Origin: Bugula neritina
Taxonomy: Eukaryota; Animalia; Bryozoa
DNA: 64,000 nt
Assembly: GCA_964035545.1 (NCBI GenBank)
Contig: OZ037769.1
Location: 13,856,633-13,920,632, forward strand
Direction of reading: 5' to 3'
The notes below the pieces were generated by a model that was given only the letters and a program-made list of their open reading frames with translations, had not been told where the DNA came from and ran no database searches. Below are positions 13,875 to 45,843 of the stretch, in pieces. Positions within the stretch are counted from its first letter, which is position 1. The number at the start of each line of letters is the position of its first letter. Made by a program: the position numbers and the translations under genes.

Positions 13875-14037
13875 TAACACCAATCAATTATAAACACATG
13901 TTACTACTACGAGTCCCTGCTCTCAACAACACATGGTTTCTGCTGGCTAACCCGCGAACAGTCACTTGACAGGAAGCTTGCCTTCCGGTCCCTCTGGTTG
14001 GCTCGTAGCACATAGCTATAAGTATTCCCATACAGGA

Positions 14038-18948: not shown

Positions 18949-19122
18949 TACTTATTTGTTTAATTTACACAGAAAAGTGGCAGGGGAAAATAACTCGAAA
19001 CAGTAACAGTAACAAAAACAAGTGTGCTTGATTTCCACAACACTATATTATTGAGTTACAAAGGTGTTTCAAGCACATGTTTTTAGTAACTTTATACATG
19101 CCACTATAATAATAATTCATAT

Positions 19123-21179: not shown

Positions 21180-21218
<39 letters not shown>

Positions 21219-22140: not shown

Positions 22141-23534
22141 AATCCAGTATCTACTCTGCAATCAGAACGGCCTCGTTCTGAAATATCATACTTAGGCAAC
22201 ACTAACTGTAATACTTATAATAACTCAAGCTGTGTAACTTAAACTTGTAAGTGTTGGATAAAAATAAAGGTAAAACTAACAATAACTGATAAGTATTAGT
22301 ATAACATAAGGCTAAGACAAAAGTAAAAGTAAATCATAATCAATAACTGCAAAATTACAAATATTAATATATAACATAAGCAACATCTAGGTTTAAATCT
22401 AAGTCTAATGATAATATAATTATATGTAATTGTATAAATCTACTCACTCTCACATCTATATTGTCATCCTGTAAGTATATGATGAATGAATAATAAAAAT
22501 CGTACTCCTATTGATAAACTTTCCAATCATAGACTAAGGACCGAATGCTAGTAATCGTGCTAGTAACGTGGACAAGTCATTGTAAGCTCTTTAATAACAA
22601 TAATAGTGTTTTTTTTTTAACTAGTTCTAAGCAATAAATCTACTACACCAATCAGAGAGGGCCTTTGTATCGCAAAGGGAGACAACTGCATGTGCATTCG
22701 TAGTCCTAATATTGTGCGCAAGCATAATAATTATACTATTCAGTTCTCATTAGTGGTTATATTATATTGGTATACTAACGCCTGACGTTCGCATTCTAAC
22801 ATTGATGCTCTATCATTAATATTATAATGGATTAACAAGTTAAACCGATCTCAATTCTGAAAGCTTAAATTACTGAAATCCTAAAGAAAAGGTGAGCATA
22901 CTCTATTTATTGTTATTATTAAATTTCTGATTATCATGTAATGTGTTGTAATTTAATTTTAGTTTGGGCATAACTATCAAAATAGTAAAAGTTATTAGGT
23001 AACACTCGTACTCGTAGTCATATTCATATTCATTTTGATATTTAATTGCATTAATTTCAACAAGAAATAACCATATTGATATTGATATTCAGCTAGTTTT
23101 ACTTTAAAATTAATTGTAGTCAAACTTAATAAATCAATCATAGTCATAGTGTTATGCTCCTCGTAATAGTCATAGCGATTGTAGATATAAAATCAAATAA
23201 TAAATTGACAACTTGAACTTATTCATAACCAATAATCATATAGTTATATTGATTAACTTCAAGTGATAATTACTTTATGGCGATGGCAATAATGCCCGCA
23301 ATGCATTAAGTTATACTTATAAAGTTGTAGTTATCATAGATTATTAATATCAGTGCCATAGCATCAGCCTAGTGAGTAGTTTCGCTTGTTTACTGTATAA
23401 ATTTAATATGGTTTTAATCTCATCAAAATCTATTTAAGCAATAATTATCTTATAGTTATTAGTCGAGTAAAACTTAAAGTGAAGTAACATCAAAAATATC
23501 TTTCCCAATAGAATTATCAAGAGTTTATCTTAAC

Positions 23535-23900
23535 ATCATCTATCATCAAGAACATTGTCTTGGAATTAAAGAGACTGCAGTAAAATTAGAAATTAAAATA
23601 TTATATCACCAAGAACTCAGCTTGGAAATAATAATCATCAAGAACTCAGCTTGGAATTAGTAATCATCAAGAACTCAGCTTGAAATTAGTAATCATCAAT
23701 AATTTTATCATAAATTGAAAACACTGCAGCAAAATTAGAAACTCAAATATACCATCAAGAACTCAGTTTGGAAATAATAATAATCAATAATTTTATCATG
23801 AAATCGAAACACTGCAGTAAAATTAGAAATTCAAATATACCATCAAGAACTTAGCTTGGAAATAATAATCATCAAGAACTCAGCTTGGAAATAATAATCT
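23535..23900. repeat. Degenerate tandem repeat inside element D
   Basis: About 7 copies of CATCAAGAACTCAGCTTGGAAAT interleaved with ACTGCAGTAAAATTAGAAA units. Confidence 0.8.
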
Positions 23901-25646
23901 TATCTTAAAATTAAAATAACTACGACAAAAACCGAAAGTGGAAAGATACATTGGGAACATTCAAATAAAAGTTTACTCTTCACTTCAAAAGATAAATTCT
24001 TACAAAACTATGATTTGGTAATATTAATCATCATATGAAATTATTATAAAATTTTGTTACTCATTTTAACTGGACACAAAGGGTTATTTCATTTGATTAG
24101 TTTACATACAGCTACGAAAATAATAAAATACTTGCTTAACATTATCAACCAAATAAGCCTATTTTTTTACATTGCTTTACATTTTTCACATAAAGAATAT
24201 TGCTGTCATATAACTATTTGATTTTACTCTAAGCCACTGTTGTTGTTAGTCATGGAAGCCACTTTACTTGCAAGGTAGAAAGTTTTATCTTAATAAGTCA
24301 ACAGTCACAATGGCATAACCAAATCAAAATATCCCTCAAATACTCCAACAGGCAACTCTGCTCAACCATTAAGTATGCTTAGGTTATTACTACTTTATTA
24401 ATTCACATACTTTTTAGTCAAGCTTAGGATAAGAATCAGCAACTATATACCTAAAGATTATATGTAAGTTCCTGTAAGAATGCAAATTGCACAGTGATCA
24501 AATTTGCAATAGAGTTGGAAAAAAAACCAGAATTTTGTTGGTTTAAAGGTAATGACTGTGGTTTGCCACCAAAAATTTGGAAAGAAAGCTAGAACCTTTG
24601 TGTAATACTGACAGCTCTCATAAATTGAGGTCTAGGTATTTAAGATAAAACGTGCTGTTGGATGTCTACAGCAAACATTTGACAAGTAGATCTCGTAAGA
24701 TCTCACATCCATGCAGGCCAAGGAAGTGCCTGATCAGGTGTACAGGGATTAGCATATTAGATTTCTTTTACCTTAAAACTTTAGGCATTTTAAGTGTATG
24801 TAACCCCACCTTCTGTACGAATTTTCCAGTCAAATGTTAGGTAATACATAATATTATCATACCTTTCAGACCGAAGATGGAATTCAGCTGTTAAGTTGTC
24901 CATTAAAGGGCTTTTGTGAAAGTAGTACAACTTAGGTCCAGCCATTCATTTACAATAAAACAAAGATAATTAATAAAGCATTTTTTTCAAATTTGCAATT
25001 TTGATTTGGATATGTGCACTATGCATACATGTAGCTATCTTTAGCAAATTCTATTGATTTGATAAGTATAGTAATATAATAATAGCTATAATAATTAATA
25101 CAATAATAGCTATAATAATTAATACAACAAGGAATATAATATTGGGTATAATAATAGATTAAAATACTGGGTATAATATTGAATATAATAATAAATATGG
25201 ATGCAGTTTAAAGTCTTGGCCCAGGACTATAGCACTAATTTGTACAAGGTGTAACTAATGATCTCTGTTTTAGTTGACTGAGCAGAATGACCTACCAAAG
25301 CAGATGATAGACAAAGAGACAAGCCCATACCATAGTACTGCGACCTCAGTTCAGGTGTCGAGAAGGATCGAACAATAACCAATTGGTAAGTTTCAAGTGT
25401 ATCAGGTTACCATTCATAACTAGTAAACAGCATCCAAATTATAACCATAGTATAGAAGGTCTAGAATGATAATAGTTTGATTAAATATAGTAAGCAATGG
25501 CTGTAATTTGCAGGGTTATAAATGTAATTTAGATAAATATATTATACTACATATGTTGCTGGGTAATATAAACAATGCTCCTTTGATTCAAACCTCAAAC
25601 CCTGTTTCTTGTTCAGTCTTTCATCTCCAAGGAAGTGGAAATACAT

Positions 25647-28367
25647 TTAGATTGTTGCTTCCCATCGAGAACAGAGATAGGCTTTCTCCTGTAGTATCAG
25701 AGGCTTTGGTTTGTAGAGCTGTACAGTCATGGGAATTACCTTCTCCGTCGAATTTCCGGGATTTGGGCAGTCAATTCTTTCTGGCAGATTTAGTATCAGC
25801 GCTGGTTGGAATCTTCTGCTGTTAGCGGTGCTACATAACATTGGTTCTTCGGAATGGCCTTGAACTTTAGCTAGGCAGATTGAAATTATCATTGTCAAGG
25901 CAATGACAAATGGGATCCAGTTTGAAAAGGTCAGTCTGTTTCCACCTCCCGTGGTTTGTTGTTTTTCATCATCGTGTTTCCTGGACAAGTGTGTCAAGTT
26001 CTCCTGGTTTGTGCCTGTATCTGAGATGAGTTTTCTTTTGGGTGGATCTTCAGTAGTTGTTATTGCTTTCTTCATCTTCTCCCAACTGATAGGTGTTACC
26101 GTGACAGGCGATGTTCTGGGTGACTGAGCATCTTTTGAAGTTGGTGTATCAGGTCTTGCAACGCTGGTGATTGTTGGTATGTCATTGACTGTGCTAGAGT
26201 TGGAAGGTGTGTTTCTTGTGTAGAGATTATGCTCATCTATGAATTGTACAACACGGTCTCTAGGTTCGTTTGGTTGCTCACGTCTGCTGCGGCATGTGTA
26301 GTGGTGGTGTCCTCTTTGACCGCAATTGGTGCAGACAGGTCTTCCGTCTATGTCAAATTCTCCTCCATTGTGTTGTTGATTGTATTGGTGTGCCTGTTGG
26401 AATCTACGTTGATGTTGTTGAGATCCCTGAAATCTATTTGGAGAGGGTTGAAATCTGGCTGGTGCTTGGAATCTTCCTCGTTGCTGGAATCTAGCAGGTG
26501 GTCCTTGAAATCTGTATGATGGCTGTTGGACTCTGTATGAATGATGCTGGGCTGGCATATAACGTTGAGTTCCGGATGTATTTCCTTGGAAGTTATCTCT
26601 TCTGTTCCTCTGCCATGTAGTGTCTGGTCCTCTATAGTATGACTGGAACCTTTGCCATGTGTCTGGATCCGGTTCTCTGCTGTTGTGTTGTCTTCTAAAG
26701 CGGCTAGAGTCCTTGTGAGAGTAGAAGTCCCGATTAGGTCCAAGGGGATTCCTTCTCATGTTATCATCTCTCCATCTGTGTCTGGCTACTTCATTAGCAT
26801 AGTCTGCCTTTTCTTTCTCCCTCAGCTCTAAGGCTTTCAAGCTTCTTTTGAGTGACTCAATCTCCTGGTCCTTCTTCTTATCACTCTCAATCGTGTTGAT
26901 AGTTGTTTGGTTAACAACATCCTGCAATAACAATTGATTGGTATGCTCGTATCTCTGAGCAACCTTGAACGCTTCATCAGAGGAAGTGATTTGGCTATTA
27001 TTTAGCATCCCACGCTGGAAAGTGATGGGGAGCCCTTTTATGAATTGGGCCAATATAATTTGGTCCCTGGCATGTTCATCAATGTTAGGATAAGCTCGCT
27101 TCGCCATTGCACATATAGTGGAGTAGAACTTTCCAACTGACTCTGTATCCAGCTTCTTCCTGCTATTCAAGTCAAAGCTTGGCACTACTCCTCCTGAGTT
27201 GATGAACTCTTGATCCATCTCCTGTATTAGTCCGTAGAAGTCTTCATTGAGGCTAGGATATTGGTTTATTATCTTAGTGTAAGTTATCTTAGCACCATCT
27301 TTAAGATATAGTGCTAGGATCTTGGGCCAGGATTCTTCTGGGATAGAGAGAGCTCTGGAGTGCATGATGAAATTCTCCTTGAACTCGTTCCAGGTCAACT
27401 CGTCGAGTGGACTGTTGGCCCATTTTTCCACATCTGGAAGTCTGTTTGTCACTGCGATGATCTGTTGCTTGACTGGCATTGTTTGAGATATTGGAGTGAC
27501 AGATCTTGCTCCATAATGGGCATTTCTTCTGTGTTTGTAATCATCTTCTTTGTATCTCCTGTCATCTTCCAATGAGAGCCTGGGATAGTGGGAGTTGCCC
27601 TTCTTTGCCGAATGTCTGTTATCATGTTCTTGCGAAGGGAGATAATGTTGGGATTGGGGAAACAATTCCATGTCAGGTGAAGGTTGTCTTCTCTCATCAG
27701 GTTGTGAGCTTCTGTGTTTACTGGGATTAAGGGGTAGCCATTCATCCTCGGAGTCGTCTGAAAGACATTCATGTAGTTGTGTTCCATAATAATAATCCCT
27801 CCTCTTTGAAGGCTGGGCCAGCATATGGCTATATTCGTCTCCTTCACTTCTATGTTTCAAGATAGATTGTCTTTTCCTTTTGGATTGATGATATTCTGGC
27901 TCTTCCTTGTCAAGGGAGTGAGATGACCTTGATGGATGATTAATTGCTTCTGGGTATTGGAAATTCCTCCTTGTAGTTTTGGGCCTGACATCTGGTTCAG
28001 GAGAGTTGTCCCGGAATAGATCAGGGGAGTTGTCCCGGAATAGATCTGGGGAGTTGGCTTCTGATCGGTGTTGCCTTCTCCTGGGAGATGGGGATGTTTC
28101 ACAGTTGTACTCATCTACGGTCAGGAATCCTTCATCATCCTCATATTGTTGGTCACGTTCCAAGTCAGTTAGTTGTGTGGGTGGTAGTTGCGGTGGAGCT
28201 GGTACATTAGTGTCATGTTGTGGCTCCCTATAGGCATGGCGGTGTGCTGCAGCCTCCCTGGCTAAGCTTTGAAAGCTGGTAGGGGCTTGCTTTTGTTTTT
28301 GGGGCTTTTCTGGGAGTCCGGTGATACGGCGGAGCAGGTTTGATACTCCTCTGCCAGGTTTACTCAT
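25647..28367 (-). CDS. Gag-like protein fused to an internal signal peptide and truncated Env-like domain (element D)
   Basis: 906 aa from the first ATG (MSKPGRG): disordered N-terminus, gag core (WNEFKENF...LYLKDGA...ESVGKFY...FIKGLP), CTNCGQRGHHHYTC knuckle, hydrophobic WIPFVIALTMIISICLAKVQG, then Cys-containing PMLC...LPERIDCP...AYLC. Confidence 0.85.
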   Translation of the reverse strand: MSKPGRGVSNLLRRITGLPEKPQKQKQAPTSFQSLAREAAAHRHAYREPQHDTNVPAPPQLPPTQLTDLERDQQYEDDEGFLTVDEYNCETSPSPRRRQHRSEANSPDLFRDNSPDLFRDNSPEPDVRPKTTRRNFQYPEAINHPSRSSHSLDKEEPEYHQSKRKRQSILKHRSEGDEYSHMLAQPSKRRDYYYGTQLHECLSDDSEDEWLPLNPSKHRSSQPDERRQPSPDMELFPQSQHYLPSQEHDNRHSAKKGNSHYPRLSLEDDRRYKEDDYKHRRNAHYGARSVTPISQTMPVKQQIIAVTNRLPDVEKWANSPLDELTWNEFKENFIMHSRALSIPEESWPKILALYLKDGAKITYTKIINQYPSLNEDFYGLIQEMDQEFINSGGVVPSFDLNSRKKLDTESVGKFYSTICAMAKRAYPNIDEHARDQIILAQFIKGLPITFQRGMLNNSQITSSDEAFKVAQRYEHTNQLLLQDVVNQTTINTIESDKKKDQEIESLKRSLKALELREKEKADYANEVARHRWRDDNMRRNPLGPNRDFYSHKDSSRFRRQHNSREPDPDTWQRFQSYYRGPDTTWQRNRRDNFQGNTSGTQRYMPAQHHSYRVQQPSYRFQGPPARFQQRGRFQAPARFQPSPNRFQGSQQHQRRFQQAHQYNQQHNGGEFDIDGRPVCTNCGQRGHHHYTCRSRREQPNEPRDRVVQFIDEHNLYTRNTPSNSSTVNDIPTITSVARPDTPTSKDAQSPRTSPVTVTPISWEKMKKAITTTEDPPKRKLISDTGTNQENLTHLSRKHDDEKQQTTGGGNRLTFSNWIPFVIALTMIISICLAKVQGHSEEPMLCSTANSRRFQPALILNLPERIDCPNPGNSTEKVIPMTVQLYKPKPLILQEKAYLCSRWEATI

Positions 28368-28943
28368 TTTTTTTATGCTGCAAATGTACTTAGCAACACA
28401 CAAACACAATGCAGCAAGTAGCAAATAGAAGAATGTGTATATATATTGTATTTATATTTTGTGAACAAATAATTGTACTGATAAATATTTGTTGCTCTTA
28501 TTATATCAACTCTTTAATTGCAAGCAACAAAAACTGTTGGACTGGAAAAGCATGTATATACATATATAAAAATTAGTATACAGCAGTATGATAATTTTAA
28601 GTAGCTGTGTGTAGAAATATTGTTAAACAGCACTATATTATGTTTATCATACAAGTTTCAAGAATAGCCAATATAAGATAAGGTAACTCTAAACTAGTTA
28701 TAGGGTAACTCTAAACTAATTATAATTATTACATTGAATATTTTAGTATATTTAGCATTAATTAGTTCACAGGATATATGATTTGCAGACAATGTAGCAG
28801 TAATATAAAAGCTTAGAGGATAAATATACATATATGTATTAATCAATCAAACGCAAGCAATTTATCACAGGCCCTATTAAAGAAAACTGGCTAGTATGTC
28901 CTACACAGCAAGATTTCTCTAAGCCCAACAGAAGCTCCAAATT

Positions 28944-31003
28944 TGTCGAACAAAAATTTAAAAATAATTAAAATAATTAAGATTAAAAATAAACTTTGCA
29001 ATTTATAATTGATAACTGAATTAAATAACTGAATTAAATAATTGAATCGGATTAAATTGAACCTCTGGTTTAGTCAGATTGGTCAGTTAAAATGAAGCGA
29101 AGTTACTTATTAGCTTTTAGTTTCAAAATTTCTATATAATTTGCAATTGATTAATCAAAAACAAGAGTTATCTTTGCTCGACAAATATTATGGTTTGGAA
29201 ATCATGTAGTAATGTATATATGTGGTTCTATGTATATTGTGTAATGGTTAGCACTCAGGCTAATATTCTGTGAGACAAATTTGGGATTTGCTCCCTCAGA
29301 AGAATTGAAATTATAATATATATGTGTTGTATAATATGTATATCTATTTGATAATAATATTGAAGCAAGCAAATTACAATAATAAAATATTACAAGAAAT
29401 TAGCCAAACCAAAACAAAGATTGTCCTAGCGACCCTTTGAAATCTTGCTGTGTTATACTAGCAACAGAAATAGCTAAGTTTGACAATTGGGATAGAAAGG
29501 CTTATACAAAATTGAATACACAATGAGAATTGCAAGTAGAACATCAATATTAAAATATATGCTTTAACATAAACTCATACAGCCTTGAAATAAATTCTTC
29601 AATATAAATTAGTGCAGCTTTAGAATTCAAATATTTTCTCAATCCAAATATTTTCTCAAGTATAAATTTGTGCAGCTTTAAAATTCAAATATTTTTTCAA
29701 TGTAAATTTATGCAGCTTTAAAATTCAAATATTTCTTCAATGTAAATTTGTGTAGACTAGAAACAAATTTCTCAATTCAAATATAAATTTATGCAGCTCT
29801 TTTTTTTTTAAATTCAAATACTTTCTCAATCCAAATATTTCTCAAATATAGATTTGTGTAGACTAGAGACAAATTTCTCAATTCAAATATTTCTCAAATA
29901 TAAATCTGTGCAGCTTTGACATAAATTTTCTCAATTCAAATGTTTCTCAAATAAATTTGTGCTGCTTCAGAATCAATAAATCAAATCAACAGATTTCTTA
30001 AAATAAATTTGTGCTGCTTCAGAATCAATAAATCAAATCAACAATTTGTGCTGCTTCAGAATCAATAAATCAAATCAACAATTTGTGCTGCTTCAGAATC
30101 AATAAATCAAATCAATAATTTCTTAAAATAAATTTGTGCTGCTTCAGAATTAAAAGAACATTGATAAACTTGTTAGTTCAAATAGCGTAGTACAAGAAGT
30201 TAATACATAAACATATCCATAAAAAAAATTGTAATATTACTTACTGCAATCAATATGTGTATTGTCAGTCTCTTGAAATTTCCCTTAGCGTTAGCAATTA
30301 CTATTATTACTGTTATTACTAATAAGTATATATTTTGTATTCCGATTATCTTTGTATACCAATTAATTAATTACTCGATTACATGATTTTCCAGAGACCC
30401 GGTGGCTCCTTTTATATCGGATCTTCTTGGCGGTGGTTCAGATTTCAAGGATACCGGCAACAACTGGTGAAAACTGGCCGACGAAAACTGGCGGCAGAAA
30501 TTGACGCAGAATTCGGTCAGGTATGTTGTTGTTTACAGCCAAGATGGGGATTGACGTAAGAGGATCTGCTGTTGTTGACTCATCTTTGTATTTTGTAGGC
30601 TATATCATCGTTAATTGTACCTCAGTCTATAATTTGAAGAATAATTTTTGACTATAATATGGTAAAATATATCAGCCAATGGTCACGTGTTGATCTCTAT
30701 AATAGGCTATATTAATGTTAAATAATTTATTAAGCATCTAAATTGTTGTATATCATCTATATGTTGGCATGAATAAATATTCACACATATACATGTATAT
30801 CTCTATTTGTAAACAGCATCTATTATATGTTTCAGCTTTTTACCTATTTCCATTTGTTCAGCAATTAGTGTTTTATTTCAAAAGTCAGTATCACAAATTT
30901 CAACACGTGATCATGGCATGTAGTACTGTAATTACTTATCCAAAAAGCCACATACTACTAGATAATATTATTTGCATTGCCACAAAGCTATAAATTCATG
31001 TGC

Positions 31004-31042
<39 letters not shown>

Positions 31043-31964
31043 AATGTATTAATGCATTCTTTGTTTAGAGCAACTTCTGTGCAAAACCAAGATGTCTAAC
31101 TCACTCAAAACTTGTACATTTAAACATTAACTTTACTCAATTATTGAGCCTCATGTATCCTATTACTTGAATGTACTTATACTCTTTCTTGAATGTTGTA
31201 GATAAATTGTAGTCTACATACCGTGATGGAGCAGATATAATAATTTATAATTGCATCAACCTGCTACAGCAGCTATCTCACTGAAAGTCTCAAGCAAACG
31301 TCAGCATCGCCGAAGCCATATTTTAATAAGCTGGCAGAACATCTCAGATACACAACTTGTGAAGTACAGAAGTAAGAATTAACATAAGAGAACAGTATAT
31401 GTATAATCATGCATCCTACCGAGAATATAGTTTTTTAAGAATTTTCTGAGAACAATGGTAATATATATATATCAATACTTTTAGTTTAATCACTTATGAC
31501 ATAATTTATAGAAATTCTACTTCTAACATTATTGCAAAATGTTTCCCGCAATCCTTGCAAACTTGTAGAAATGAGGCTATCTAACATTTCTATTTTGTTT
31601 ATATTAGCGAATAGTTTCAGTCTTTATATCGGTCACCATGAGGATACAATTGCTTTGACATTTCTATTCCCATCAATAAAATAAGCATTTTCTACGTAAG
31701 AGAGAAACTATGTCTATTTACCTGGTAGACTATTCTGCAAGGCCATGATAGAGTTTTGACTTTGCAAGTTATTCTGCAAGGCCATGATAGAATTTTGAAT
31801 TTCCTCTCCACTACTTTTACTAAAACTCTTAAGCTATACTCCTATATTCAAACCATTAGTTCTAATCATAACTACTATTAGCATATCATTCTGTAAAAAC
31901 ATTAAGTTGCTGTGCAGTATCTACTCTGCAAAATATAAAGTACTGTGTAATCTCTGATCTGACA
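28944..31964 (-). repeat. 5' LTR of element D (~3021 bp)
   Basis: Copy of 19123-22140; contains a minus-strand TATAAAAGG at ~30407-30415 next to a GC-richer patch. Confidence 0.92.
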
Positions 31965-34035
31965 ATATTTAGGGCTTGTAGATTAAAGATTTTATACCTA
32001 CACAGAGACTGCTGAATACTGATGACATTTGTATCTGGGCATTATAGCACACGAGCTTTCTGGGCTGTTTTGTATATAATTTGCATGTGCCAAATTAATA
32101 AAATATTTTATAACAATCCACAGTTCTTCAAAATATGAAAAGTTACCTTTAGCCTAGCTACAAAAATGAATTTTATTATCGCATGGAAGTATGTCGTGGT
32201 GCCAAACGTTTGCAAAAGCATTATGTTATCGTTGCCATTAGTAGCAAACATTTATTATGCAGTGATGCGACAGTCATCGGAATTTCCCCAAACATCGAGG
32301 GAATTTCCGTAGTGGCGACTTTCCACCTTATACGCAGTGGTTTTTCCTCCGCTTGGGAAATTCTATTATAGCATATTATAGAACGACCGTTTATCAATCC
32401 AAACATTTTCACTTGTAGTAAATATCCGCCTCTCCAAACTGAATTGCGCGTAAGAACATAACAATGGACCTTGTTTTCTGAGCCTTTGTTAGTATGAAAA
32501 ATTATTCTGGTTGTATTGTTTATTTTTGTTTACAGAGATAGTTATAGGGGGGTTAAACTCATGTGATTGCGGAATACAACTGTTGATACTCAATTCGTTT
32601 TGTTTTAGTTTTTTCTTCAACTTTTCGTTTTAGTTTAGGCGTTGCCGATTGTCACTATCACTGAGAGTGAGTATCAGTGTATCACTATCACTATGAGTAT
32701 GATTATGACTTTCACTATGATTATGATTGACATCATGATTGTGATTATTATTATCAATATTATTATGAATATCATGATTTAGGTTGTAGTAATCTTATTC
32801 AGATTTATTTAGTTTTTAGTAATAGCTCTGTTAAACTTAATCATAATGTTATATACTGATACTTATTTTATTTTTATTCACATTAACTTTGAGTTTGACA
32901 TTAGCGTTGCTATGCCTATAGCCCTATAGTAATAGTTATAGTATAACTATACGTAGTACTAATGGTAATAGTAATAGGCAATTAAACTTATTGTGATAAT
33001 AACAATAGAAATAACAATTTAAACTAGAGATTGCCATTCTGATTCAGTTAGTGGTCGTTTTGCTATTAAAAGTCAAAATGATAATCAGAATGTAACACTA
33101 ACAGTGGTAACTGTAGGGCTAAGTGTAACTGTAATTAACTTCTAGGCAATTTCAACTGGCTATATAACTATAGTATACTGTATACCATAGTTTGTATAGT
33201 ATAACTATATGCCATATATAGTATATGCTATATTCATTAGATACTTGAGAAAATTTATGTAGTTTAAAATTGTTACTTGACATGCATCTTCTCATCTGCC
33301 TTAAACTCTAGTAATCTTCCACATGTAGGTTTAGTAATTTACTGTAAGTTCCAATGAAATGGAAAGTTGTGTAGTGTTGTTCGAGGCCCAATAGTTATGT
33401 GGGCTTTCTAGCGAGTCTAATTAGCATTTAATCACCGATAACTCAAGGGTAGTTTCGATTAGAAGCTTTATTAAATTATATAATACAATGCAAAAAAATA
33501 TCTCTATGTATCACGGAACTTGCTACTTTACATCACTGTAATTACGCTCCAACTAACTACTGACTGTCTGTATGGCTTAATACGATTGTTATCTATAACT
33601 CTCTGTGATTGGCAGGGGGTGCGCGTGACGTGTAAACCACGCCCAATTACACCGCCCCCCCCCCAGCAGGAAGCATACCTTCCTGATATTTACCCAACAA
33701 CAACAAAAAAAATATAAAACAAAATAATAAAAAAAACAAAAATATAAAATCTGAACATCAAAAATATCACGTATAAGATTGGCATATTCCCAAAAAGAAA
33801 TTTACATGTTTGTGAGCAAAACTACGTGGGGAATGACACAATATAAACCCACGGTTTATCTACATATTGATATAAGAAAGAAAAATATAAAATAATATCC
33901 ACGTACGAAGATCATGTAGCACCGAGATCAGATACGGCCGGAGAGGGATGAGTGTGGGGAGAGAGATAACGTGTCACCACCTGCAGGTGTGAAGGGTCGG
34001 AAGAAGTGGGGAAGGAGAATAATGTCATTAAGGGT

Positions 34036-35130
34036 TCAGTCCTGGTCACCTCGCTTGAGTAGAGCCACAGAGGCTTTGAGAGTTTTAAGCTCTGAGCCGG
34101 CGGCAGCTACTCTAGGAGTTAGTCGTTGAACCTCGGCCTCCAGGTCATATACGCGGAGTTTAACTTCTTTTAAGTTGCGAGCGGTGGGAGCATGCCGTTT
34201 TGGAGAGGATGAGTGCCAGCGGCGTTTAGTAGAAGGTTGTACAGAAACGGGGGAGGGGGAGCGTCGTTTTCTAGGTATTTCGACTCTCTGGAGGAGGACT
34301 CGTGGTAGGGTGGTGGGTCGAGGTACAGTTTGTGCTGGAGGAGAGTGGGGTGGCTTTGCAGATTTCCTGTGTCTAGGGGGTTTCGGACACGGTCCATGAG
34401 TGATGAGGCGAGGGGATGGGAATCCTTGTTTCAGTCGCTCGAAACGGGGGAGATCTTTGATGAAGGGCTTTATTAAGTTGAGGAAGGTGGGGAAGTTATA
34501 CTGATCCACGTCATATAGGTGCCCCACATGGCATTCCATGGTGCGCTGGTGTCTGAGGATGTAGTCCCTGTGGTAACTGAATTCACCACAGGGACAGAGG
34601 GTGGTTAAGAAGTGTTGCGGTACATGGACGCGCAAACGGCGATGAGTAGAGAAGTGCTGTTGACACAGCCTGCAGGTGGTGCATTCATCATGGCCGCGGT
34701 GTATCTGGATCTGTTCTTCTGTTTCTTGTGCGACCCAGCTATGCCGTTGGAGTAGCGTGTCCGGCAGGGAGGTGGGAGGTGTTTCGCCGTTCCAGGCTAG
34801 CTCTAGTGGTGGCATGTCTCCGTAGTTGGAAGAGCGAGTGGCGTCTAAAAGAGCAGAATTATTGTTAGATCGAAGTTGATCTTTACAGCATAATTCTGAT
34901 GACAATCGACTGTTACTAGTCTGAGAGTCATGCATCTTTTTGTACGGCACTCGAGAGACTGTGTCAGAACGTGTAAACTGACTGAGAGACATAGTATCAA
35001 GCTCCAGATCTAGTAGATCGTCCGCCATTACTATGTCCTCGTCGTCATTCACGTGTGACTCTGTCTCCAGTAACTGTGATTCAATCAGATCGATTAAATC
35101 AGAGTTGACTGAGGTGAGATCTATTTCCAT
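34036..35130 (-). CDS. Accessory ORF of element E: C2H2 zinc-finger protein with C-terminal coiled coil
   Basis: 364 aa ATG-initiated ORF between pol and the PPT; CRLCQQHFSTHRRLRVHVPQH (C-x2-C-x12-H-x3-H) and CPCGEFSYHRDYILRHQRTMECH; acidic N-terminus, basic RKRR/KRR, heptad Leu/Val tail. Confidence 0.78.
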   Translation of the reverse strand: MEIDLTSVNSDLIDLIESQLLETESHVNDDEDIVMADDLLDLELDTMSLSQFTRSDTVSRVPYKKMHDSQTSNSRLSSELCCKDQLRSNNNSALLDATRSSNYGDMPPLELAWNGETPPTSLPDTLLQRHSWVAQETEEQIQIHRGHDECTTCRLCQQHFSTHRRLRVHVPQHFLTTLCPCGEFSYHRDYILRHQRTMECHVGHLYDVDQYNFPTFLNLIKPFIKDLPRFERLKQGFPSPRLITHGPCPKPPRHRKSAKPPHSPPAQTVPRPTTLPRVLLQRVEIPRKRRSPSPVSVQPSTKRRWHSSSPKRHAPTARNLKEVKLRVYDLEAEVQRLTPRVAAAGSELKTLKASVALLKRGDQD

Positions 35131-35407
35131 TAGTGGAGGTGTTAGATCTAGGCAAGCTTACCTTGGAACTCGGTATTTGTACTCATACTCGACGTTCAAG
35201 CTTGGATGTGGATGGATTAAAAAGCACGTCTACTCTTGACCGCGTCAGCGTAGGAAAAGGCTGGACAGCGTCTTTGTTGTGCGAGACCGGAACTGTGTGC
35301 CCGGGGAGTGGTAATTCCACTCGCTATTCCGTTTTCGCAAAACTTGGTTTTTCCGTGGTGTTCATAACTCCCACGCTTTGCTGCCAGTCTTTCCGTACGG
35401 CGCCCAG

Positions 35408-38400
35408 CTAGACTCTCATACCTGCTGCTTGTAACGCGGTCGCATACGAAGTTTTGGAGATAAGCTGGTGGTCGTCTAGTACGTTGCCCCCTTTCAAGGG
35501 GGGAGATGTACTAGTGGTAGACGCCGGAGAAGGTGGGGTAGCTGGTGAGGGAGGTGGTGTACTCACCAGTGGGTTGTTACACTCTACTGGTGGTGTTTCC
35601 TGCCTCCCGTCGGCTGTCATTCCCTCGTCCCCTCTGTTCCCTCCGGACGGAGCCCCTCCCGTGGGGGGGTTTTGCACTTCCGGAAGTATATTTAGTTCTG
35701 GAAGTGGTGGTGGTAGCCTTGGGGCCGGACGGCTTGGCGCTGGGGGCAGAGGGCGCGTCCCCGTTGGAGGGGGTGGCCTCTTTTGCCTTGCCAAGTCTTC
35801 TGTCCGTGGAATGACCCACTCATCATTGGGTTTATGCCGCCGCCGCCTGCGCATCGTTGTCTGCCTCCTGGGCTCTAACAATGGGGGGCACCCTCTGCCG
35901 CACCTGGGCTAGCCCAATAGGGTTTCAAGCGGGCTTCATTCTGGACAGATATCTGTCCAGACCGCTCCAGCTTGTAAGTATGATTGGGCATTGCCTCAAC
36001 TACTACGTAGGGTCCCACGAACTTAGGCTGTAGTTTAGCTGCCTGTCCTCGACGCCTACGGTAGTTGATCATCCAGACCCAGTCTCCGGTCTGGTAGAGG
36101 GGTGGCTCGTCAGCGTCTTCCTGTCGCACCTGCCACTACTTCTCCCGCAGTATTTCGTGTGCGACTCTCAGATGCTCTATCAATTCCCCAGCGTACTCGT
36201 GGACAGAGTATTCTGGCTCCGGAATATGATAGGCGAGGTGGTCGGGCACTCGTGTCTCACGACCGAGTGTCAAGAGGTTGGGGGCCTCGCCGGTGCTGGT
36301 ATGTGGCGTGCTGCGGTAGGCCCGCATGACCTGTGGTAAGACAAGATCCCATTCCTCCTGGCCTCGGCCGAGTAGTAGACTGCGGAGTGCATCGCCCAGC
36401 ATCCGGTTGTTGCGTTCGACCACCCCGTTACCCTGGGGGTGGTATGGAGTGGTCCTGCTTTGGTTTACTCCCCAGAGGCGACAGAGGTCGCTCATCAGTT
36501 GAGACTGGAAATGCGACCCCTGATCCGAGTGTAGTTGCTCGGGCAGCCCAAAGTAGCAGAACGCACGCTGGTCTAGTGTGCTGGCCACTGTCGGGGCAGA
36601 CGCATCCGGGATGGCCAGAGCGTCGGCCCACCTAGTGAAGTGGTCGGTCAGCACTAGGATTCAACTGTTTCCTCTGGGGGTGATGGGCATGGGTCCGACC
36701 AAGTCAACAGCTACCACCTGCCAGGGCCTGCCAGCATATAGCCTACGTCGTCCCGCTTCTCCAGGGGGACGGCCATGCTTGCTGGCCTGGCAGATTTCGC
36801 ATTGCTTGATCCTTAGTCGGACGTCACGCTCCATGTTGGGCCAATACCACCGGAGCCTTAGCTTGGTAAGCACCCTCCGGACTCCGGCGTGAGCCTGCCG
36901 GTGAGTGTCCCATACTAGCTCCCGGCGCATGGCGGCTGGGCAGATCACTCGTTTTCGACCAGGATGTCCCCGGCCGGCGGCCAAGGTGATGGTCAGCAGA
37001 CCATCTGGCCCGATCCGCAGGGAGTCCCAGCGTTGGCAGTACAGCCGTAATTCGGCGCACTCCTGCCGCAGCTGTTCTTCGCTGGGTCGTCGCCCCTCCC
37101 GTTTAGCTCGATATATGTCGGCTACCACCCCAGGGAGGTCCTCCTGGAGTTTCTGCAGCTCCCTGACATTACGAGCTAAGACAGGGTTGGCTCGGAGATT
37201 GTTGACAGCCTCCGGTGGGTTGGGAATCCTTGGTTTGAGTTGACCTTGGTCCCAGTCGTAGCTCACTCCAGGGTGGTCCAGTTTCGCCAACTCGGATCTT
37301 GGGGGACCCCCATCCCTTCTCTCGATGTTGTGACACTGTTTACACCCCTCGTCCGGCCGCCGACTCAGTCCGTCCGCGTTGCCGTGTTTTCTACCGGGTC
37401 GATGTTCGGTCCGGTCTGAAAACTCGGCCAGGACTTCGAGCCATCGGGCGACTTGGCTGGACGGTTCAGCTCTCTTACACAGCCAAATCAAGGAGGCGTG
37501 GTCCGTCCGCAAGCGGAACGGCCTACCGTAAAAATAAGGCCGGAAGTGTTTGACTGACTTGATTACTGCCAATAACTCCTTGCGGGTAGTGCAGTAATTG
37601 CGCTCAGGGGGTGAGAGCGATTTGCTATAGTAAGCTACGACTACTTCACGGCCCTCTTGCACTTGCGACAGCACAGCACCAACGTTCTGGTCACTGGCGT
37701 CCGTGTCAAGAACGTACTCCAGAGCGGGGTCTGGGTAGGCCAGAATTGGAGCCTCTAGAAAGCGGCTCTTGAGACTGTCGAATGCCCTTGATTGGACGGA
37801 TGTCTACTGCCAGGCCACTCCCTTTGCGGTGAGCCGATTTAACGGCTGTGCAACCCCCGCAAAGTCTGGTGTGTATTGTCTATAATACCCTACCAGCCCC
37901 AGGAAGGCCCGGAGTCCGGTTAAGTCCTGGGGGGTGACTCAGTCGGCCACAGCCCGCACCTTTTCCGGGTCCGTCGCCACGCCATTACGGCCGACTACGT
38001 GCCCCAGGTACTTGACCTCCGGCTGCAAAAGAGCGCATTTGGAAGGTTTGAGTTTGAGACCGGCACCTCGGAGTCGCTCGAAGACCTCCCGCAGACGACT
38101 GACATGGGTCGTAAAGTCTGGGGAGATTACGATGACATCATCGAGGTAGACGAGCAGCGTCTTCCAGTGGAGGCCGCTGAGAACCTGTTCCATGAGCCGC
38201 TGGAAGGTAGCAGGAGCGGAAGTTAACCCGAAGGGCAGTACCTTCCACTTCCACAGCCCATCTCTGGTGATGAACGCCGCTTTCTCCTGGGCGTCGGGAC
38301 TGAGGGGGACTTGCCAGTAGCCACTCAGCAAGTCTAAAGTACTGAAGTACTTGCTGCCGGCTAAGGCGTCCAGGGATTCGTCGATCCGAAGTAGAGGGTA

Positions 38401-40617
38401 GGCGTCCTGTATTGTTACGCTATTAAGTTTGCGGTAATCCACACAGAACCGCCAACTGCCGTCTTTCTTCCGGACCAAAACGACCGGCGAGCTCCACGCA
38501 CTATGTGCAGGCTCTATGAGGCCGCGGTCCAGAAGATCCCGGACTTGTCGGCTGACCTCCTTCTCCTTTTCTGGCCCCAGTCTCCTAGTGGGTTGGCGGA
38601 TAGGAAGAGTCCCGGCCGCTAGCGGTATCTCGTGACGAACGGCTCTAGTCAGGCCCACATCCTGGTCTCCGTTGCTGAACACGTCCCCATACTGGCACAG
38701 CAACTGAGCCATAGCTTAGCGCTCCTTGTTGCCCACGCAGCCTTCACAGGCTGACTGGTATAGTTCTCGGACGTGTTCCGGGACGGTCCCCCGCCGTACA
38801 GACGGGCGCTCTTGGGGACCCTCCGTCGCCTCGCCCAGCGACGGCCCTATGTCTCCCTTTTGGACCGTGTAAAAACGGCCCAGTAGGGATCCGGATGGTA
38901 GTGTCACCGACTCTGAAAAGGGGTTGATACACTGCACCAAGATCTCCCCTCAGTCAGTCAGCCGGTTCAAGCTACTGGCAAGTTGGATTCTCTTGTGCGT
39001 TCCTTCAACGACCCCTAATCCAGGGAGTTGGCGGTCATTCACCCTGCAGTAAATGGTCGCCCGGGAGCGGCCGGGTACTGTACAGTTGCGTATCACTTGC
39101 ACGCCCCCGACCAAGGGACGGCCGAACCTATTGACACAGGAAAATTCCCGGCCCGCCATTAGTATGGCGGACTTATGGAAATCCATATGGCATTGGTGTC
39201 GCTTCAGGAACGACGTCCCCAGGATGTGATCTTCTTCCAGCTGGCTGAGGATGAAGGTTTCCTGGATGGCCTGGTCGCGGATGCGACGAGGCAGCTCTAC
39301 AACATCGTAGAAGGGAATACGCGACCCGTCTGCGAGGGTGCCAGGTTCCCCGGTGTAGGGAGCTAGTTCCTTCCTCACCTGGAGAGGGAGAGCATCGAAG
39401 ACTCGTCTGCTGAGGAGATTCGTGTTGCAACCGGAGTCTAGCAAGAACGTGACAGCCTTGCCTGCCACCTTCCCGGGTAGGAAGTAGCTCTCTCCATGAG
39501 GTTGCAACCTTACTTCCCCAGCATGCATAGTCTCGGGCAAACGGCGTGGTTTCCGTTTGGTGATTGGCTGGTGCCGCTTTTTAGGCGGAGGGCTGTTTGA
39601 CTCCACTCCGATGTCCAGATGGACCTCGCCGGCCAGCTCCGTTTCCGGTAGCTGGCTGAAGCGGTTGGTGATTGGTAGCCTGAACGGTTCCCGCCGCCCG
39701 TTGGGACGGCTGGTCCGTCGTGGTGTCTGCCATTCACGGGGTGCTTCTCGTGGTTGCTCTCTCTTCGGCTCGTGAGGCCTTCTCCTGGATTGGGGGTCTC
39801 TTGGGCGGGGAGGCCCTGGTTTGCCGCTTTTCTCACCTCGAGTAGTTTTCTCTGAGGTCTCTCCTTTCGGTCCTCTGTTGGGGGGCCCGGCATCGGTGAG
39901 GGTCTTCGCCATCTGTTTCAATTTGATGCTCAGCCGGCCCATCTTGTCCCCTAGCGACTGAGCGACCTCCGCAGTGACTCGCGTGCCTCTTGCTTTCTTC
40001 GAATATAACCGCTCGGCCCGGAGATAGTCTTCTCCGACTTGCAGGGCACTTTCTAGGGTGGTCACTCCCTTCGCCTGTAATTGATGGTAGAGGCCCACAT
40101 CTTTAAGGGACTGCATGAAGTCAATGAGAGTAAAGTTCTGTCGGTGTGTTTCTGGCAGGTCGCTGTACGCGCTCCGTGCCAGTCTCTTCACTAAGGCAAC
40201 GTGGTCGCGGAGGGGTGTGTCTTCCGCCTGTCGTAGTACTTGCAGGCGGGCCCTGGCTTCCAGGGCGGAGGTGCCAAAACGGCTCCGTAGTGCAGTGAAT
40301 ATTTCCGCCACGCTCCGTCCTTGTCCGAACGGTCTAGCGCGCTCCGTCAATACTTCCCGCAGTTTGATGAGGGCTACTTGTGGCGGCCACTGAGCGACGT
40401 CTGTTACTTTATGGAATTCCTGGATGAATTGTTCTACATCTTCCGTACCCGTGAAGGTGGGAGCGGTCAGTCTATCTCTATATGCCTCCTCCATGTATAA
40501 GAAATTGACTGGCTTACCTCCTGGGTCTTCTGTTGTATGTTCTGTCATATTTCCCGTCTTTCCATTGTCTCGGCTAGAAAAATCCCACCGCCGCCACCAC
40601 TGTTGTGCGAGGCACAA
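35408..40617 (-). pseudogene. gag-pol of element E with stops/frameshifts
   Basis: gag-PR (FLLDSGC) 38950-40617, RT 37939-38712, RH 36661-37674, IN 35875-36654, broken by in-frame stops and frameshifts. Confidence 0.93.
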
Positions 40618-41693
40618 TAGTTATGTGGGCTTTCTAGCGAGTCTAATTAGCATTTAATCACCGATAACTCAAGGGTAGTTTCGATTAGAAGCTTTATTAA
40701 ATTATATAATACAATGCAAAAAATATCTCTATGTATCACGGAACTTGCTACTTTACATCACTGTAATTACGCTCCAACTAACTACTGACTGTCTGTATGG
40801 CTTAATACGATTGTTATCTATAACTCTCTGTGATTGGCAGGGGGTGTGCGTGACGTGTAAACCACGCCCCATTACAGTAGCACAGTTTAACGTCTGTTTA
40901 TAAGAATAAGCCAGGGCCCCGGTGGTAGTATTTTCAGGTAGTCTATAATGAATAAGTTATTGTTAAATGCTGCCAAATTCAACACACAACTACTGAGTGT
41001 TGATCAGCCACTGATTGGTGATGAGTAAATTTATCTTGGAGTGACTATACAGTCAGAGTTAAAGTGTACTTATTATACACAATCAGCAAAGTAAGCAATG
41101 ATAATAAAGGTTCTGAGTTGTATAAAATATGCTCCTGTTGATTTGCTCTTGACTACAAAGCTGATCAAATAGCCGAGGTTATTTCACTGAATACTTGAAT
41201 ATGATTGATGTCTTGCAGTTTGATACAGAAATGTTGTCTTACAGAAATAATTCTGATTATATGTAATCTTACAATGATATCGCGTTAAATTGTTAATTTC
41301 AAGTTTGTATTATTTTTGTAGTTTTATATCTTTTCACCCTACATTTTGTGACCTAAATTTTTACAGATATTATTCCACATAGAAATATTTTTGTTTTTCT
41401 CGGTTATTATGCAATAATTTTGATATAAACTTGTTCTAATTAGGTTTAATGAGAATATGTGTAGTTTTTAGTTAAAATGATCCTAACAAAATCAAGCTTT
41501 GAGCTGTGGTACAAAGGTATTTAGAATAATCAAAAAATCTTGATGTTTGAAGAGAATAATTTCAGTTCACACTACAGTTAAAATAAGCTTTCTTTTAGCT
41601 GTAGTGTGAGCAGCACATGATGCATGATTTACTGTAATGTTAGTAATTTTAGAATATTTTATTCTTAGCTGGATGATGTGGTAGGGTAGTGCA

Positions 41694-43787
41694 ATGGCTG
41701 AGGGTTACTCCACAGCAGATCTGGATATGAATGGTTTGTTTGATATAATATAACTAATTTTATATAATATTAATTAAACTTGTGCAAATATTTTAGCTGA
41801 AGTGTTAGCATAAAGCAGTTTCATGTCTATACTTTTGGGCTCCTGTATTTGTAACATTTGTATTTATTGTTTGATATTTATGGCGTACAAATTATCAAGT
41901 CTGTCAGAAATAATAAACAATCAATTTTCTTATGCTAAATTAAGTACATCAGGCATTCAAGATTACTAAAAAATTGTGACATGACACTAAAATAAGTCAT
42001 TATTGTGTTTCAGGAGAGACTCAAGATGCAGATTCTCCATTTAAAGGTAAATAACAACTATTCTCAGCTTCAAGTATAGTGACGATAATGATTCTGGATT
42101 TTAGATTCATTGCTACATTATGTGGCTGTTGCTCTTTAGTATAGTTTATATTGTTTTACAGCTTCTTTCACCAGCAAAGAACTTCTTGGTAAAGGTAGTT
42201 TTGGGTTTGTCTACAAACGGTATGATGAACTGAGTAAGCAATGCATGGCTTGTAAGGAGGTGGACTTGGGTTTGGTTACTAACGCAGGATATCAGAAGGT
42301 ATTTCTTTATTTATGAGAGTTCATTATCAAATTAGAAATTTAACCTAAAAATTTAGTTGATGTTGCCAGTAGTCAAAGTGTAGAGAAAATGGTGAGACTA
42401 AAAAACCGTTAAAACTTAATTACTAATTTTCGTGCCTCAATTCTGCTATGTAAGTTTTATCTGTGCACCCCTCATCTAGACAACTTGATGGATCTGTTAG
42501 ATACAAGGGTGGTTCAAAAAGTAACGCCTGTTGTGTAAGATCAGAGAATTTTTATTTTCTGAATACTTAAACTATATATCAAAATGATCAGCAACAACTT
42601 AGGAACACACTTTATTTCTCAATATAGTCTCCTCCATTGTCCACAGCTGCTGTCCATCGTTTTATGAAAGCATGTATTCCTGCCTCGTAAAAGGAGGATG
42701 ATTGTGAGCGCAGCCAAGACCGTACAGCCGTTTTAACTTCTTCGTCAGTAGAGAATCGCTGACCTCTAAGTCCTTCCTTCATCGGACCAAACAAATGAAA
42801 GTCTGATGGAGCCAAGTCAGGGCTGTATGGTGGATGAGGCAATGTGGTCCACCCATGACGGGTGATTTCCTCTCTTGTTCTCAAACTTGTGTGGGGACGG
42901 GCATTGTCGTGCTGAAGGAGCACGTTAGCCACGTTGACATTTGGTCTGCAACGCTCAAGTCTGGTTTTCAACTTCCTTAGATTCTCAATGTAGGCTTCAG
43001 AATTTATGGTAGTGCCTTTGGCCATAAAGTCAATCAGTATCACACCCTGATAATCCCAAAACACAGTAGCCATCACCTTGCCAGCGGATGGCTGAGATTT
43101 GAATTTCTTCTTTCTGGGTGAGTCTGCATGTCCCCATTCCATTGACCTTCTTTTGCTTTCTGGCTCATAATGATGAACCCAAGTTTTGTCACCAGTGATA
43201 ATTCTTTGCAAAAATGTCTCATCTTCTGCATGCATGCTGAGAAGCTCACAACCATCCTCCTTTTACGAGGCAGGAATACATGCTCTCATAAAACGATGGA
43301 CAGCAGCTGTGGACAATGGAGGAGAATATATTGAGAAATAAAGTGTGTTCCTAAGTTGTTACTGATCATTTTGATATATAGTTTAAGTATTCAGAAAATA
43401 AAAATTCTCTGATCTTACACAACAGGCGTTACTTTTTGAACCACCCTCGTACTTACAACTAAAGGCTCAGCTGATGCTCATCATGATTGAAAGCTCTTAC
43501 TATTGTACCTGCTAAATGCCTTGTTGTTTTGGCATTTTTTTTATCAAGCATGTTTGTTGTTAAAACATTGAATATAGTTTTTCTTTATTTAATTCATGAA
43601 GCTGTTAGTTTTAAAAACTGGCCTTAGTTAGTGGATTTTTATCAAGTAAAAGACCTGCTTGCGTTTCCTGACTTTTAAAAACTGTTTGGAACAAAATATA
43701 ATGCTTGGTTTTAACCCAAACTGACTGAAACAGTGGTTTGTGCATCTAAATATTCTATTTAAGCAAAAACCTCATATATATACACAC

Positions 43788-44009: not shown

Positions 44010-45843
44010 TAGTAAAATGAGAGTTTATATAACGTTACAAGAATGCTCTATAGAAATAATTCTAGAGCATAAACATTAGAAGAAACGAGATGAGATTTGA
44101 TTAATATAATGACATTTATTACTATTAGTTTCGTATACAAAACGATGTGCACTCGTCAGATAAAATTGCCATTATCATTGCTCACAACTATAAAATATTT
44201 TTATATGTAAATATACACAGAATAAGCTAGAGGATTAAAATATAACAAAGAGGTAGCATAGAATGTAATTGGCTATGTCACAGCATTCTTGAGTAGGAAT
44301 TCACTGCTATGTCTGCATATGGATAAAAAGTCACTGCGCTTATTGAGAGAAGATAACTGTGGCTTGTAAAGGATAAAATATTTTTCCCATAAGCATAGCT
44401 GACAGCTTTTAGTAATGTTATTGTATGGCTGGGTTTTTTTGAGAATTCTCCAGGATATTGTGAAGTCTAGGCCTCTGTCTTTTAAGGACCAGATGTGTTT
44501 GCTTAGCTCAGTTTGTAAGCGTTTGGTAGGGTGCCTGAAGGAAGCAAGGTGGTTGTAGTATCTTGCCTTGAATGCAGTAGAAGAAATTCCTACATATGTT
44601 TCAACAGCACCGTTTGATGGGACAGATACATTGGCCTGGTACACAATGTTTGGGGTTGTGCATTCTCCTGGGAGCGGGCACAACTCTACGTTTCTACAGT
44701 TACAGCCTGCCTGTGGTGTAGGGGCAGTGTTACATTTAGTCACATTTTTGTTGTGAGCAGTGATAGTTCGCTCCAAATTTGGGCAGCAACTGTAGCTGAG
44801 TTTGAGTGTGTTCTTGTTAAATATTTTGTACAGTGGGTGTTTGCTGTGGAATGTATCTTTTATTAGCTTGAGAAAAATGGAGCCGATTTTTGTCTTTACA
44901 TTACGGCTATAAAGTGGGTTGTACCAGATGACTTGTCTTTGTAGTATAGGTTTAATGCTTGTATTGGTGTTGTTAGTGTAGTCTCTGTATTTGAGCTGAT
45001 AATTATATCCACTTTTAGCTAACGCATCTTGATATTGTGGGATGGCATTGTTGAAAATGGTCTCATTAGTAGATATATCGCAAAGTCTGCGGTTTATGGA
45101 TTCTGGTATGTTTTTCAGTATGCTAGGGGGATGGTTAGAGTCTTTGTGTACATACAGAGGAATGTTGTTGGGCTTAGAGTATGGTGTATGTTGTTTCTTT
45201 ACCAGATCTAGGGTGACATCTAAATAGTCCGTTGTTTTTATTTTAACATCTATGGTGATCTTTAAACCGTGTGATTGAAATAGTGTGCAAAGGTCTTTTT
45301 TCAATCTTTCAGCTAGTTGGGGTTTGAGATCTGTGACTCCTAGCCCATCATCTCTATATAGACCAATGTTAGCTTTAAACTTTTTTGAGATTGTACTTAA
45401 TAAAAATAGTCTGACTAATTCACATGTTTCAGCACCATCGTGTGAGCCCATGGTGACGTCAAACAAATTATTTGACGATCTTTCACCCCAAAATGAGTTG
45501 TCATGCACCAATATAGATTTTTTTGTGTGCAGTATGGGAAAAATATTTTATCCTTTACAAGCCACAGTTATTTTCTCTCAATAAGCGCAGTGACTTTTTA
45601 TCCATACGCAGACATAGCAGTGAATTCCTACTCAAGAATGCTGTGACATAGCCAATTATATTCAATGCTACCTCTTTGTTATATTTTAATCCTCTAGCTT
45701 ATTCTGTGTATATTTACATATAAAAATATTTTATAGTTGTGAGCAATCATAATGGCAATTTTATCTGACGAGTGCACATCGTTTTTGTGTACGAAACTAA
45801 TAGTAATAAATGTCATTATATTAATCAAATCTCATCTCGTTTC

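Follow-up and report, generated by a model that had tools for sequence, protein, structure and literature searches.

Genes for nuclear control are familiar from complex retroviruses and have hardly been described in Gypsy elements. The Tas/Bel1 protein of foamy viruses is a 3'-encoded nuclear transactivator with an acidic region, which is expressed from spliced RNA and acts on the virus's own promoter. Extra ORFs without known function are common in the env slot, and C2H2 zinc-finger proteins are usually regarded as host weapons against retroelements. The only animal Gypsy precedent for an element-encoded regulator in the literature searched is CERV of the C. elegans element Cer1, a spliced product of gag and env-slot sequence that is needed for export of genomic RNA (PMC10309623). 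In the accessible part of that report, CERV is described as a nuclear protein with H, M and G domains, a Cys-rich loop of C4 type, a putative zinc site, a leucine zipper and a nuclear localisation signal (NLS), which is encoded partly in frame with the polyprotein and has no homology outside nematodes (PMC10309623).

Like CERV, the ORF examined here, termed ORF3, takes the place of env in an animal Gypsy element without being an env gene (PMC10309623, accessible part). It lies within the 64,000-nucleotide stretch of DNA that was analysed (the window), where an earlier note had reported an open, 364-aa sense ORF between pol and the polypurine tract (PPT); this was confirmed at 35130-34036 of the minus strand. 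The element that houses ORF3 is 7.5 kb in length, occupies positions 33375-40876 on the minus strand and has the attributes of a Ty3/Gypsy (Metaviridae) element. Its 5' LTR (40601-40876, 276 nt, TG...CA) and 3' LTR (33375-33651, 277 nt) are 98% identical, with four substitutions and one indel over 277 columns, and a 4-bp target duplication is found at 40877-40880 and 33371-33374. A primer-binding site, which we take to be of the Leu-tRNA type, is located at 40581-40599, the same motif occurring in the related loci L003, L004 and L007 and in elements A and D of the window, and the 3' end has a PPT with a G-run at 33652-33664, preceded by a T-rich 3' untranslated region of ∼370 nt. The intervening gag-pol (35217-40548) comprises a CA-like segment, protease (PR), reverse transcriptase (RT), RNase H, integrase (IN) and a long tail, with Pfam matches on successive open segments following the Gypsy order of PR-RT-RNase H-IN. 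The contrast previously drawn between an intact ORF3 and a lesioned gag-pol stood only in part. Indeed, gag-pol is a single but broken frame of 1549 codons, interrupted by six premature stops and by two frameshifts, one near 35900 and one near 35510. However, only 1.4-1.9 lesions would be expected in ORF3, and an ORF free of lesions would arise by chance with a probability of 0.14-0.25; openness was therefore rejected as a sign of selection. The pol frame stops at 35217, ∼90 nt upstream of the ORF3 ATG.

The features that had been attributed to the ORF3 protein, namely an acidic N-terminus, one canonical and one atypical finger, a Pro-rich, basic linker with an RKRR motif, a coiled coil and the absence of a transmembrane segment, were all recovered. 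ORF3 (34036-35130, minus strand, in the same sense as gag-pol) begins with an acidic, disordered region (residues 1-120), the first 50 residues of which include 16 Asp or Glu and no Lys or Arg. This is followed by a double-C2H2 domain at approximately 120-245, by the linker (246-314), with 17 Lys or Arg and 16 Pro, and by the coiled coil (315-363), which is modelled as a helix with pLDDT above 90. The signal peptide and transmembrane anchor that characterise the env proteins of errantiviruses are both absent from ORF3, in which the highest 19-residue hydropathy is 0.77 and the model has no membrane helix. The AlphaFold2 model comprises one 120-aa finger domain (pLDDT 94.8, pTM 0.85) and one long helix, the remainder being disordered, and is devoid of the H, M and G-protein-like domains of CERV. 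Thus, while the nuclear location, putative zinc site, NLS and leucine zipper of CERV are matched by predicted features of ORF3, the two proteins have no domains in common (PMC10309623, accessible part), ORF3 being set apart by its tandem C2H2-derived domain, acidic head and C-terminal coiled coil.

The finger domain, which is unnamed (34387-34782, minus strand), consists of a W-x4-T helix, a C2H2 finger, a CxC-H-C/H finger, a VD strand and two helices. Finger 1 (C153-x2-C156-x12-H169-x3-H173) conforms to the canonical C-x2-C-x12-H-x3-H pattern, and finger 2 reads C179-x-C181-x12-H194-x5-C200. In the canonical finger 1, and in the superposition of the fingers as a pair, the domain resembles Kaiso, SALL4, HIC2 and CTCF. 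It differs from tandem C2H2 domains in the CxC of finger 2, the variable last ligand and a 5-residue inter-finger linker that is not TGEKP-like, and in the flanking helices and strand that extend it to 120 aa. No Pfam family, C2H2 families included, was above cut-off for the ORF3 domain, and PF13894 was matched in 26 of 70 members only at E values of at least 0.018. When compared by VIA, both fingers superpose jointly on the DNA-bound pairs of Kaiso, ZNF524, SALL4, ZBTB20 and CTCF over 50-57 residues (rmsd 2.4-3.9 Å), with Z scores of 3.0-3.5 that are weak; the best sequence match in the PDB is to the tandem fingers of HIC2 (E = 2e-5). Foldseek searches of viral and PDB libraries returned nothing at E≤0.001 (E > 0.7), a VIA search with full-length ORF3 returned only generic coiled coils, and the matching Atlas rows are unnamed or C2H2 clusters, to be treated as leads only. 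On the basis of the model, the two fingers are predicted to be arranged like DNA-bound tandem C2H2 pairs. Directly after the domain, 36 of 70 close proteins carry a PxVxL-like motif (P/L/S-x-V-x-L-[QRH]-R), presumably of the HP1-binding type, and a related pattern is present in 8 of 41 diverged proteins compared to 2.3 after shuffling.

A word-based search identified 69 homologues of ORF3, 50-86% identical, among 3583 candidates, and a HMMER search of 1.84 billion representatives identified 166 at E≤0.001 (150 of the 166 listed). The core common to these proteins corresponds approximately to ORF3 residues 120-245. In 76 domain copies of less than 60% identity, C153, C156, H169, H173, C179, C181 and H194 are conserved at 89-96% (the ligands of finger 1 at 91-95%), the wider set of W132, T137, finger ligands, V208 and D209 at 82-96%, and R165, which is position +3 of recognition helix 1, at 71%; the ligands are nearly invariant in copies that have diverged to 25-35% identity. 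In alignments, conservation is lower in linker and tail than in the finger domain. The order of acidic head, fingers, basic tail and terminal coiled coil is kept in diverged homologues, with a net acidic head in 21 of 36, a basic cluster in 25 of 41 (17.5 after shuffling) and a terminal coiled-coil score in 30 of 41 (3.8 after shuffling). Two pairs of related loci differ in the finger region by 12 synonymous and 4 nonsynonymous changes (7:1 and 5:3), from which this region is judged to be under purifying selection. Similarly, 16 of 38 variants in the N-terminal region of family contigs are synonymous (22-30% expected) and none introduces a stop, indicating that this part of ORF3 is still protein-coding. 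Direct scans for ORF3 DNA were negative in 31 metagenome contig stretches and in 110 prokaryote genomes, and the sole viral match, L001, was dismissed as a chance match in a giant-virus-like contig. A search for long fusions (2005-5000 aa) was positive in 0 of 4642, which is weak evidence.

The best 80 of 442 integrase relatives were retained for an analysis of linkage, and a quick tree of 83 integrases was constructed, from which L029 and one window element were left out owing to short alignments. The tree consists solely of unnamed loci, as opposed to references for named clades such as Mag, CsRN1, Gmr1, MolGy and PolGy. Among the best 80 of 442 relatives, the domain profile matches only L003-L008 and ORF3's own element, all of which fall in a single 13-row clade (SH-aLRT 99). 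The module is located behind integrase in 7 of the 13 rows, i.e. in all seven tree-placed members with enough flank, the flanks of the remaining six being no more than 1189 nt each. Conversely, it was found in none of the 71 sequences outside the clade, 23 of which have at least 2.2 kb of flank. The seven module-bearing rows represent five lineages, whose integrases are only 58-61% identical to that of ORF3's element. The finger pair has been kept in the env slot across ∼40% integrase divergence, and the unnamed domain serves as a clade marker. L029, a 58% integrase relative outside the tree, showed no finger match in its 1858-nt flank. The 69 close and 166 wider homologues, together with this clade-wide linkage, support the view that ORF3 is a genuine accessory gene of the element, conserved and distinct from env.

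The module is fused in frame to the C-terminus of Pol/integrase in L004/5, L006/7, L008 (with a lesion) and P0206, whereas it forms a separate ORF behind a stop in ORF3's element, in L003 and probably in L010. The split and fused states show the gene moving between the Pol tail and a separate ORF. Linkage in L003 depends on a 55-nt overlap between the contig and the pol end. The L003 contig (1-1390 and 7336-7440) has both an ORF3 path and a path that skips ∼1.25 kb of ORF3, so that an ORF3-less deletion variant exists in its family. In the long ORFs P0195, P0197 and P0216, the finger domain is joined to a Gypsy protease, and neither RT nor integrase is evident in between; these are perhaps non-autonomous elements that retain the regulator. 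The extra integrase C-terminal module of the fused members is comparable to the integrase C-terminal chromodomain of chromoviruses (PMC2774666, accessible part), except that in this clade zinc fingers and a coiled coil replace the chromodomain, often in a separate ORF. No chromodomain was matched by Pfam in ORF3 or in the open pol-tail segment at 35408-35908.

Organism names were associated with members of four clusters among the 20 homologues looked up, and all are bryozoan genes, the domain being present in Watersipora XP_067940964.1 and XP_067944745.1 and in Bugula KAF6040922.1 and KAF6040923.1. This suggests that the hosts of the clade may be spiralian. The bryozoan genes (P0188, P0214, P0242 and P0213) have one or two copies of the domain each, and three of them share an N-terminal segment that was not seen in element copies, which suggests that the sharers could be host genes conserved between Watersipora and Bugula. 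Their existence prompts one to ask whether sequences have been exchanged with host transcription factors. In the domain tree the bryozoan genes are scattered, with too little resolution to give the direction of transfer between gene and element. That named Watersipora and Bugula genes carry the domain would be in keeping with ORF3 as a host zinc-finger exon that was captured recently and has no function. However, occurrence in five lineages at the integrase distances given above, purifying selection, and divergence of the domain to 25-35% identity around nearly invariant ligands have largely refuted this idea, which retains hardly any probability; any capture would be old, despite the unresolved positions of the bryozoan genes. 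The earlier note had itself envisaged that the ORF might be absent elsewhere or a one-off exon capture, and the homologues, clade linkage and selection indicate otherwise.

Splicing to gag exons has been shown for CERV and is predicted for ORF3 (PMC10309623, accessible part). A predicted donor in early gag (G/GTAAGC, 40512-40520, minus strand) has its first intron base at 40517. This motif occurs at two of the nine GTRAG sites on the sense strand of the element, at 40517 and at 35161, the latter being the first intron base of a second predicted donor, within a short upstream ATG frame (35156-35186, minus strand). A predicted branch point (CTAAC), pyrimidine tract and acceptor are located at 34845-34873 (minus strand), with the last intron base at 34845 and in frame with ORF3 codon 96/97; this is the top-scoring of five candidate acceptors that passed a branch-point and pyrimidine filter. 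A weaker candidate acceptor is present at 35121, and both donors and both acceptors are predicted to be of phase 1. Elements A (10509) and D (52254) have a phase-1 donor at the same place, despite gag starts that cannot be aligned, the gag donor thus being kept in three window elements (A, B and D). In L003 and L007, no gag donor of the GTRAG type was seen. At the highest depth in family contigs, for which 40 of 54 variants are listed, 34844-34873 is without variants, and a similar gap is seen at 34889-34923. Joints in run X1, which consists of contigs of unrecorded kind, are unlike the predicted introns and have no bearing on expression.

The 5' third of ORF3 is also predicted to form a three-hairpin RNA structure (34833-35113, minus strand, over codons ∼6-100). 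The fold of 34790-35170, with three long hairpins, has an energy of -125.9 kcal/mol (z -6.3, matched by 0 of 100 shuffles), and 34832-34961 has the lowest z of 114 element windows; the opposite strand of the fold core folds also (z -3.8). Pairs are broken by 8 of 34 family variants as opposed to 16.8 expected (P 0.0002), and four pairs are compensated as opposed to 0.7 expected (P 0.003), in each case from unphased variants, with kinship uncorrected and 40 of 54 listed. Bases derived from 84 homologous proteins, likewise uncorrected for kinship, gave 79 cells with double changes compared to 32-38, whereas the share of kept pairs was not significant under a stricter null (P 0.12), and the compensated pair 34946/34842 is mostly broken at the protein level (4 keep, 37 break). 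Rfam returned no match for the RNA element, and no comparable fold was seen between integrase and fingers in L004, L007 and L008; hence the element may be family-specific, with a role in packaging, dimerisation or splice control. Since it lies upstream of the 34845 acceptor, full splicing would remove it. HIV Rev/RRE is similar in having a structured RNA in coding sequence within an intron, here a predicted one, and a basic, oligomerising protein (PMC10309623, accessible part). Rev differs in having no zinc fingers, and its leucine-rich nuclear export signal (NES) is unsupported in ORF3.

The function tentatively preferred for ORF3, at a little under an even chance, is that of a spliced, nuclear, oligomeric transactivator that binds its own LTR and drives or protects transcription, a reading suggested most simply by the combination of an acidic head with a finger pair of the DNA-binding type, a basic linker and a coiled coil. 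In this scheme, the phase-1 donor in gag, or else a short upstream exon, would be spliced to a phase-1 acceptor of ORF3, use of that at codon 4 yielding a long form that includes the acidic region and use of that at codon 96 a short form that lacks it. The basic linker would then direct nuclear import, the acidic-hydrophobic N-terminus would activate transcription, and the protein would assemble via its coiled coil on the DNA of the element's own LTR as the putative target. Placement and acidic region are as in Tas/Bel1, and by analogy splicing and action on the promoter may be so too, although Tas/Bel1 belongs to vertebrate Retroviridae and has no C2H2 fingers. Several observations count against such a transactivator: structural similarity is weak (Z≤3.5; Foldseek E > 0.7), a common LTR motif across the clade was not found, L003 and L007 showed no GTRAG-type gag donor and the 1858-nt flank of L029 no finger match, and splicing to codon 96 would drop the acidic region. 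Moreover, C2H2 fingers bind RNA and protein too. The structured RNA within the predicted intron would better suit an export system, in which the spliced ORF3 protein oligomerises on the folded RNA and licenses export of the unspliced genomic RNA or blocks splicing. Such a regulator, of the kind represented by Rev and by CERV of Cer1 (PMC10309623, accessible part), would accord with the strength of the fold, with variants that respect pairing, with the compensatory changes and with the position of the RNA upstream of the 34845 acceptor. It is nonetheless thought somewhat unlikely, as ORF3 has three matches to an NES pattern but the heads of its homologues show no enrichment of such patterns (11 of 29 compared to 14.7 after shuffling), the fold has no counterpart in L004, L007 and L008, and the variant counts carry the limits stated above, including the mostly broken pair 34946/34842. 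A broader proposal, deemed unlikely, is that an undescribed invertebrate Gypsy clade is 'complex' in the retroviral sense, with a single gene that both encodes a C2H2 regulator of the element and contains an RNA switch acting in cis. Alternative splicing from gag would then generate two forms, a long one that activates and a short one lacking the acidic region, with feedback on LTR transcription as well as on the export of unspliced RNA; in bryozoans, the domain may have been domesticated as host genes.

The occurrence of the module in frame with Pol in L004/5, L006/7, L008 and P0206 also weighs against a transactivator, and would fit a tether that, with or within integrase, steers insertion to DNA motifs or chromatin in the manner of chromodomains in chromoviruses. 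The predicted DNA-binding type of the finger pair and the PxVxL-like motif after the domain are compatible with this. However, a stop makes the module an ORF of its own in ORF3's element, in L003 and probably in L010, the acidic head and splice signals would be superfluous for tethering, and CERV is likewise partly in frame with a polyprotein (PMC10309623, accessible part); tethering is accordingly rated as quite unlikely. The PxVxL-like motif could also belong to an anti-silencing decoy that titrates host repressors, such as HP1-type readers or zinc-finger repressors, instead of recruiting polymerase. The top structural rows are indeed repressor fingers, including Kaiso, SALL4 and ZBTB, and the fingers are better conserved than linker and tail, but the motif is short and not clade-wide, and a decoy seems improbable as compared with the transactivator that is preferred here.

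No paper on the finger domain or the clade was found in the literature searched, although Repbase, GyDB, subscription journals and supplements may hold annotation. The word 'zinc' occurs 0 times in the accessible parts of PMC13524379, PMC8556966 and PMC8220671, and the accessible parts of PMC13269885 and PMC2774666 contain nothing relevant to the ORF3 domain. A C2H2-based, clade-defining env-slot gene in split and fused forms did not appear within the literature searched and to that extent seems new. Here, it is a retroelement clade itself that keeps the finger pair, in a small system of one ORF, a 277-nt LTR and a 280-nt RNA element that should be useful for studying self-driven transcription or the export of unspliced RNA in LTR elements.

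Elsewhere in the window, a homology between element A and sequence 3' of pol had been taken as a hint that A carries the ORF. The stretch concerned (A 14-263 versus 35266-35515, 66-74% identical) proved instead to be the C-terminal tail of pol, a frame that runs to 35217. Presence of ORF3 in A's family has indirect support, since element D, whose 3' LTR is 93% identical to A's LTR, keeps what by its sequence is the coiled-coil end of an ORF3 homologue (51546-51713, minus strand, 77% to P0129), between a truncated gag and the PPT/3' LTR. Element D (50930-52637, minus strand) is a 1.7-kb, internally deleted clade member comprising LTR, primer-binding site, partial gag, the ORF3 coiled-coil end, PPT and LTR; its two LTRs are only 75% alike, and it is possibly a recombinant. 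Its gag-to-ORF3 junction was considered as that of a spliced retrocopy, which was rejected because no GT is present at the matching place in A. Element A (1-10892, minus strand) is split by a nested LTR element (4249-8524, 438-nt LTRs, 99.5%), whose 1055-aa ORF has SCAN, protease and integrase matches but no RT match, presumably a Gmr1-like domain order. At 19122-31965, two 3-kb copies that are 99.9% identical flank a 934-aa ORF (25647-28451, minus strand) in which gag-like motifs and a CCHC knuckle precede a signal-like hydrophobic stretch and a segment containing Cys, and for which Pfam gave no match; this may be a young LTR element that lacks pol and has very long LTRs as well as an env-like part. 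A further Gypsy element (14036-18537, plus strand) has an open gag-pol of 1318 aa and terminal repeats of 234 nt with 100% identity to each other, and an LTR-like copy related to it lies at 50505-50929. Inverted repeats of 253 nt at 44139-45785 surround a 424-aa ORF, taken by eye to be a Penelope-type RT end with GIY-YIG, and inverted repeats of 208 nt at 42502-43451 surround a mariner transposase fragment. Several tandem arrays, with units of 30, 39 and 11/22 nt, are present at 57900-62000.
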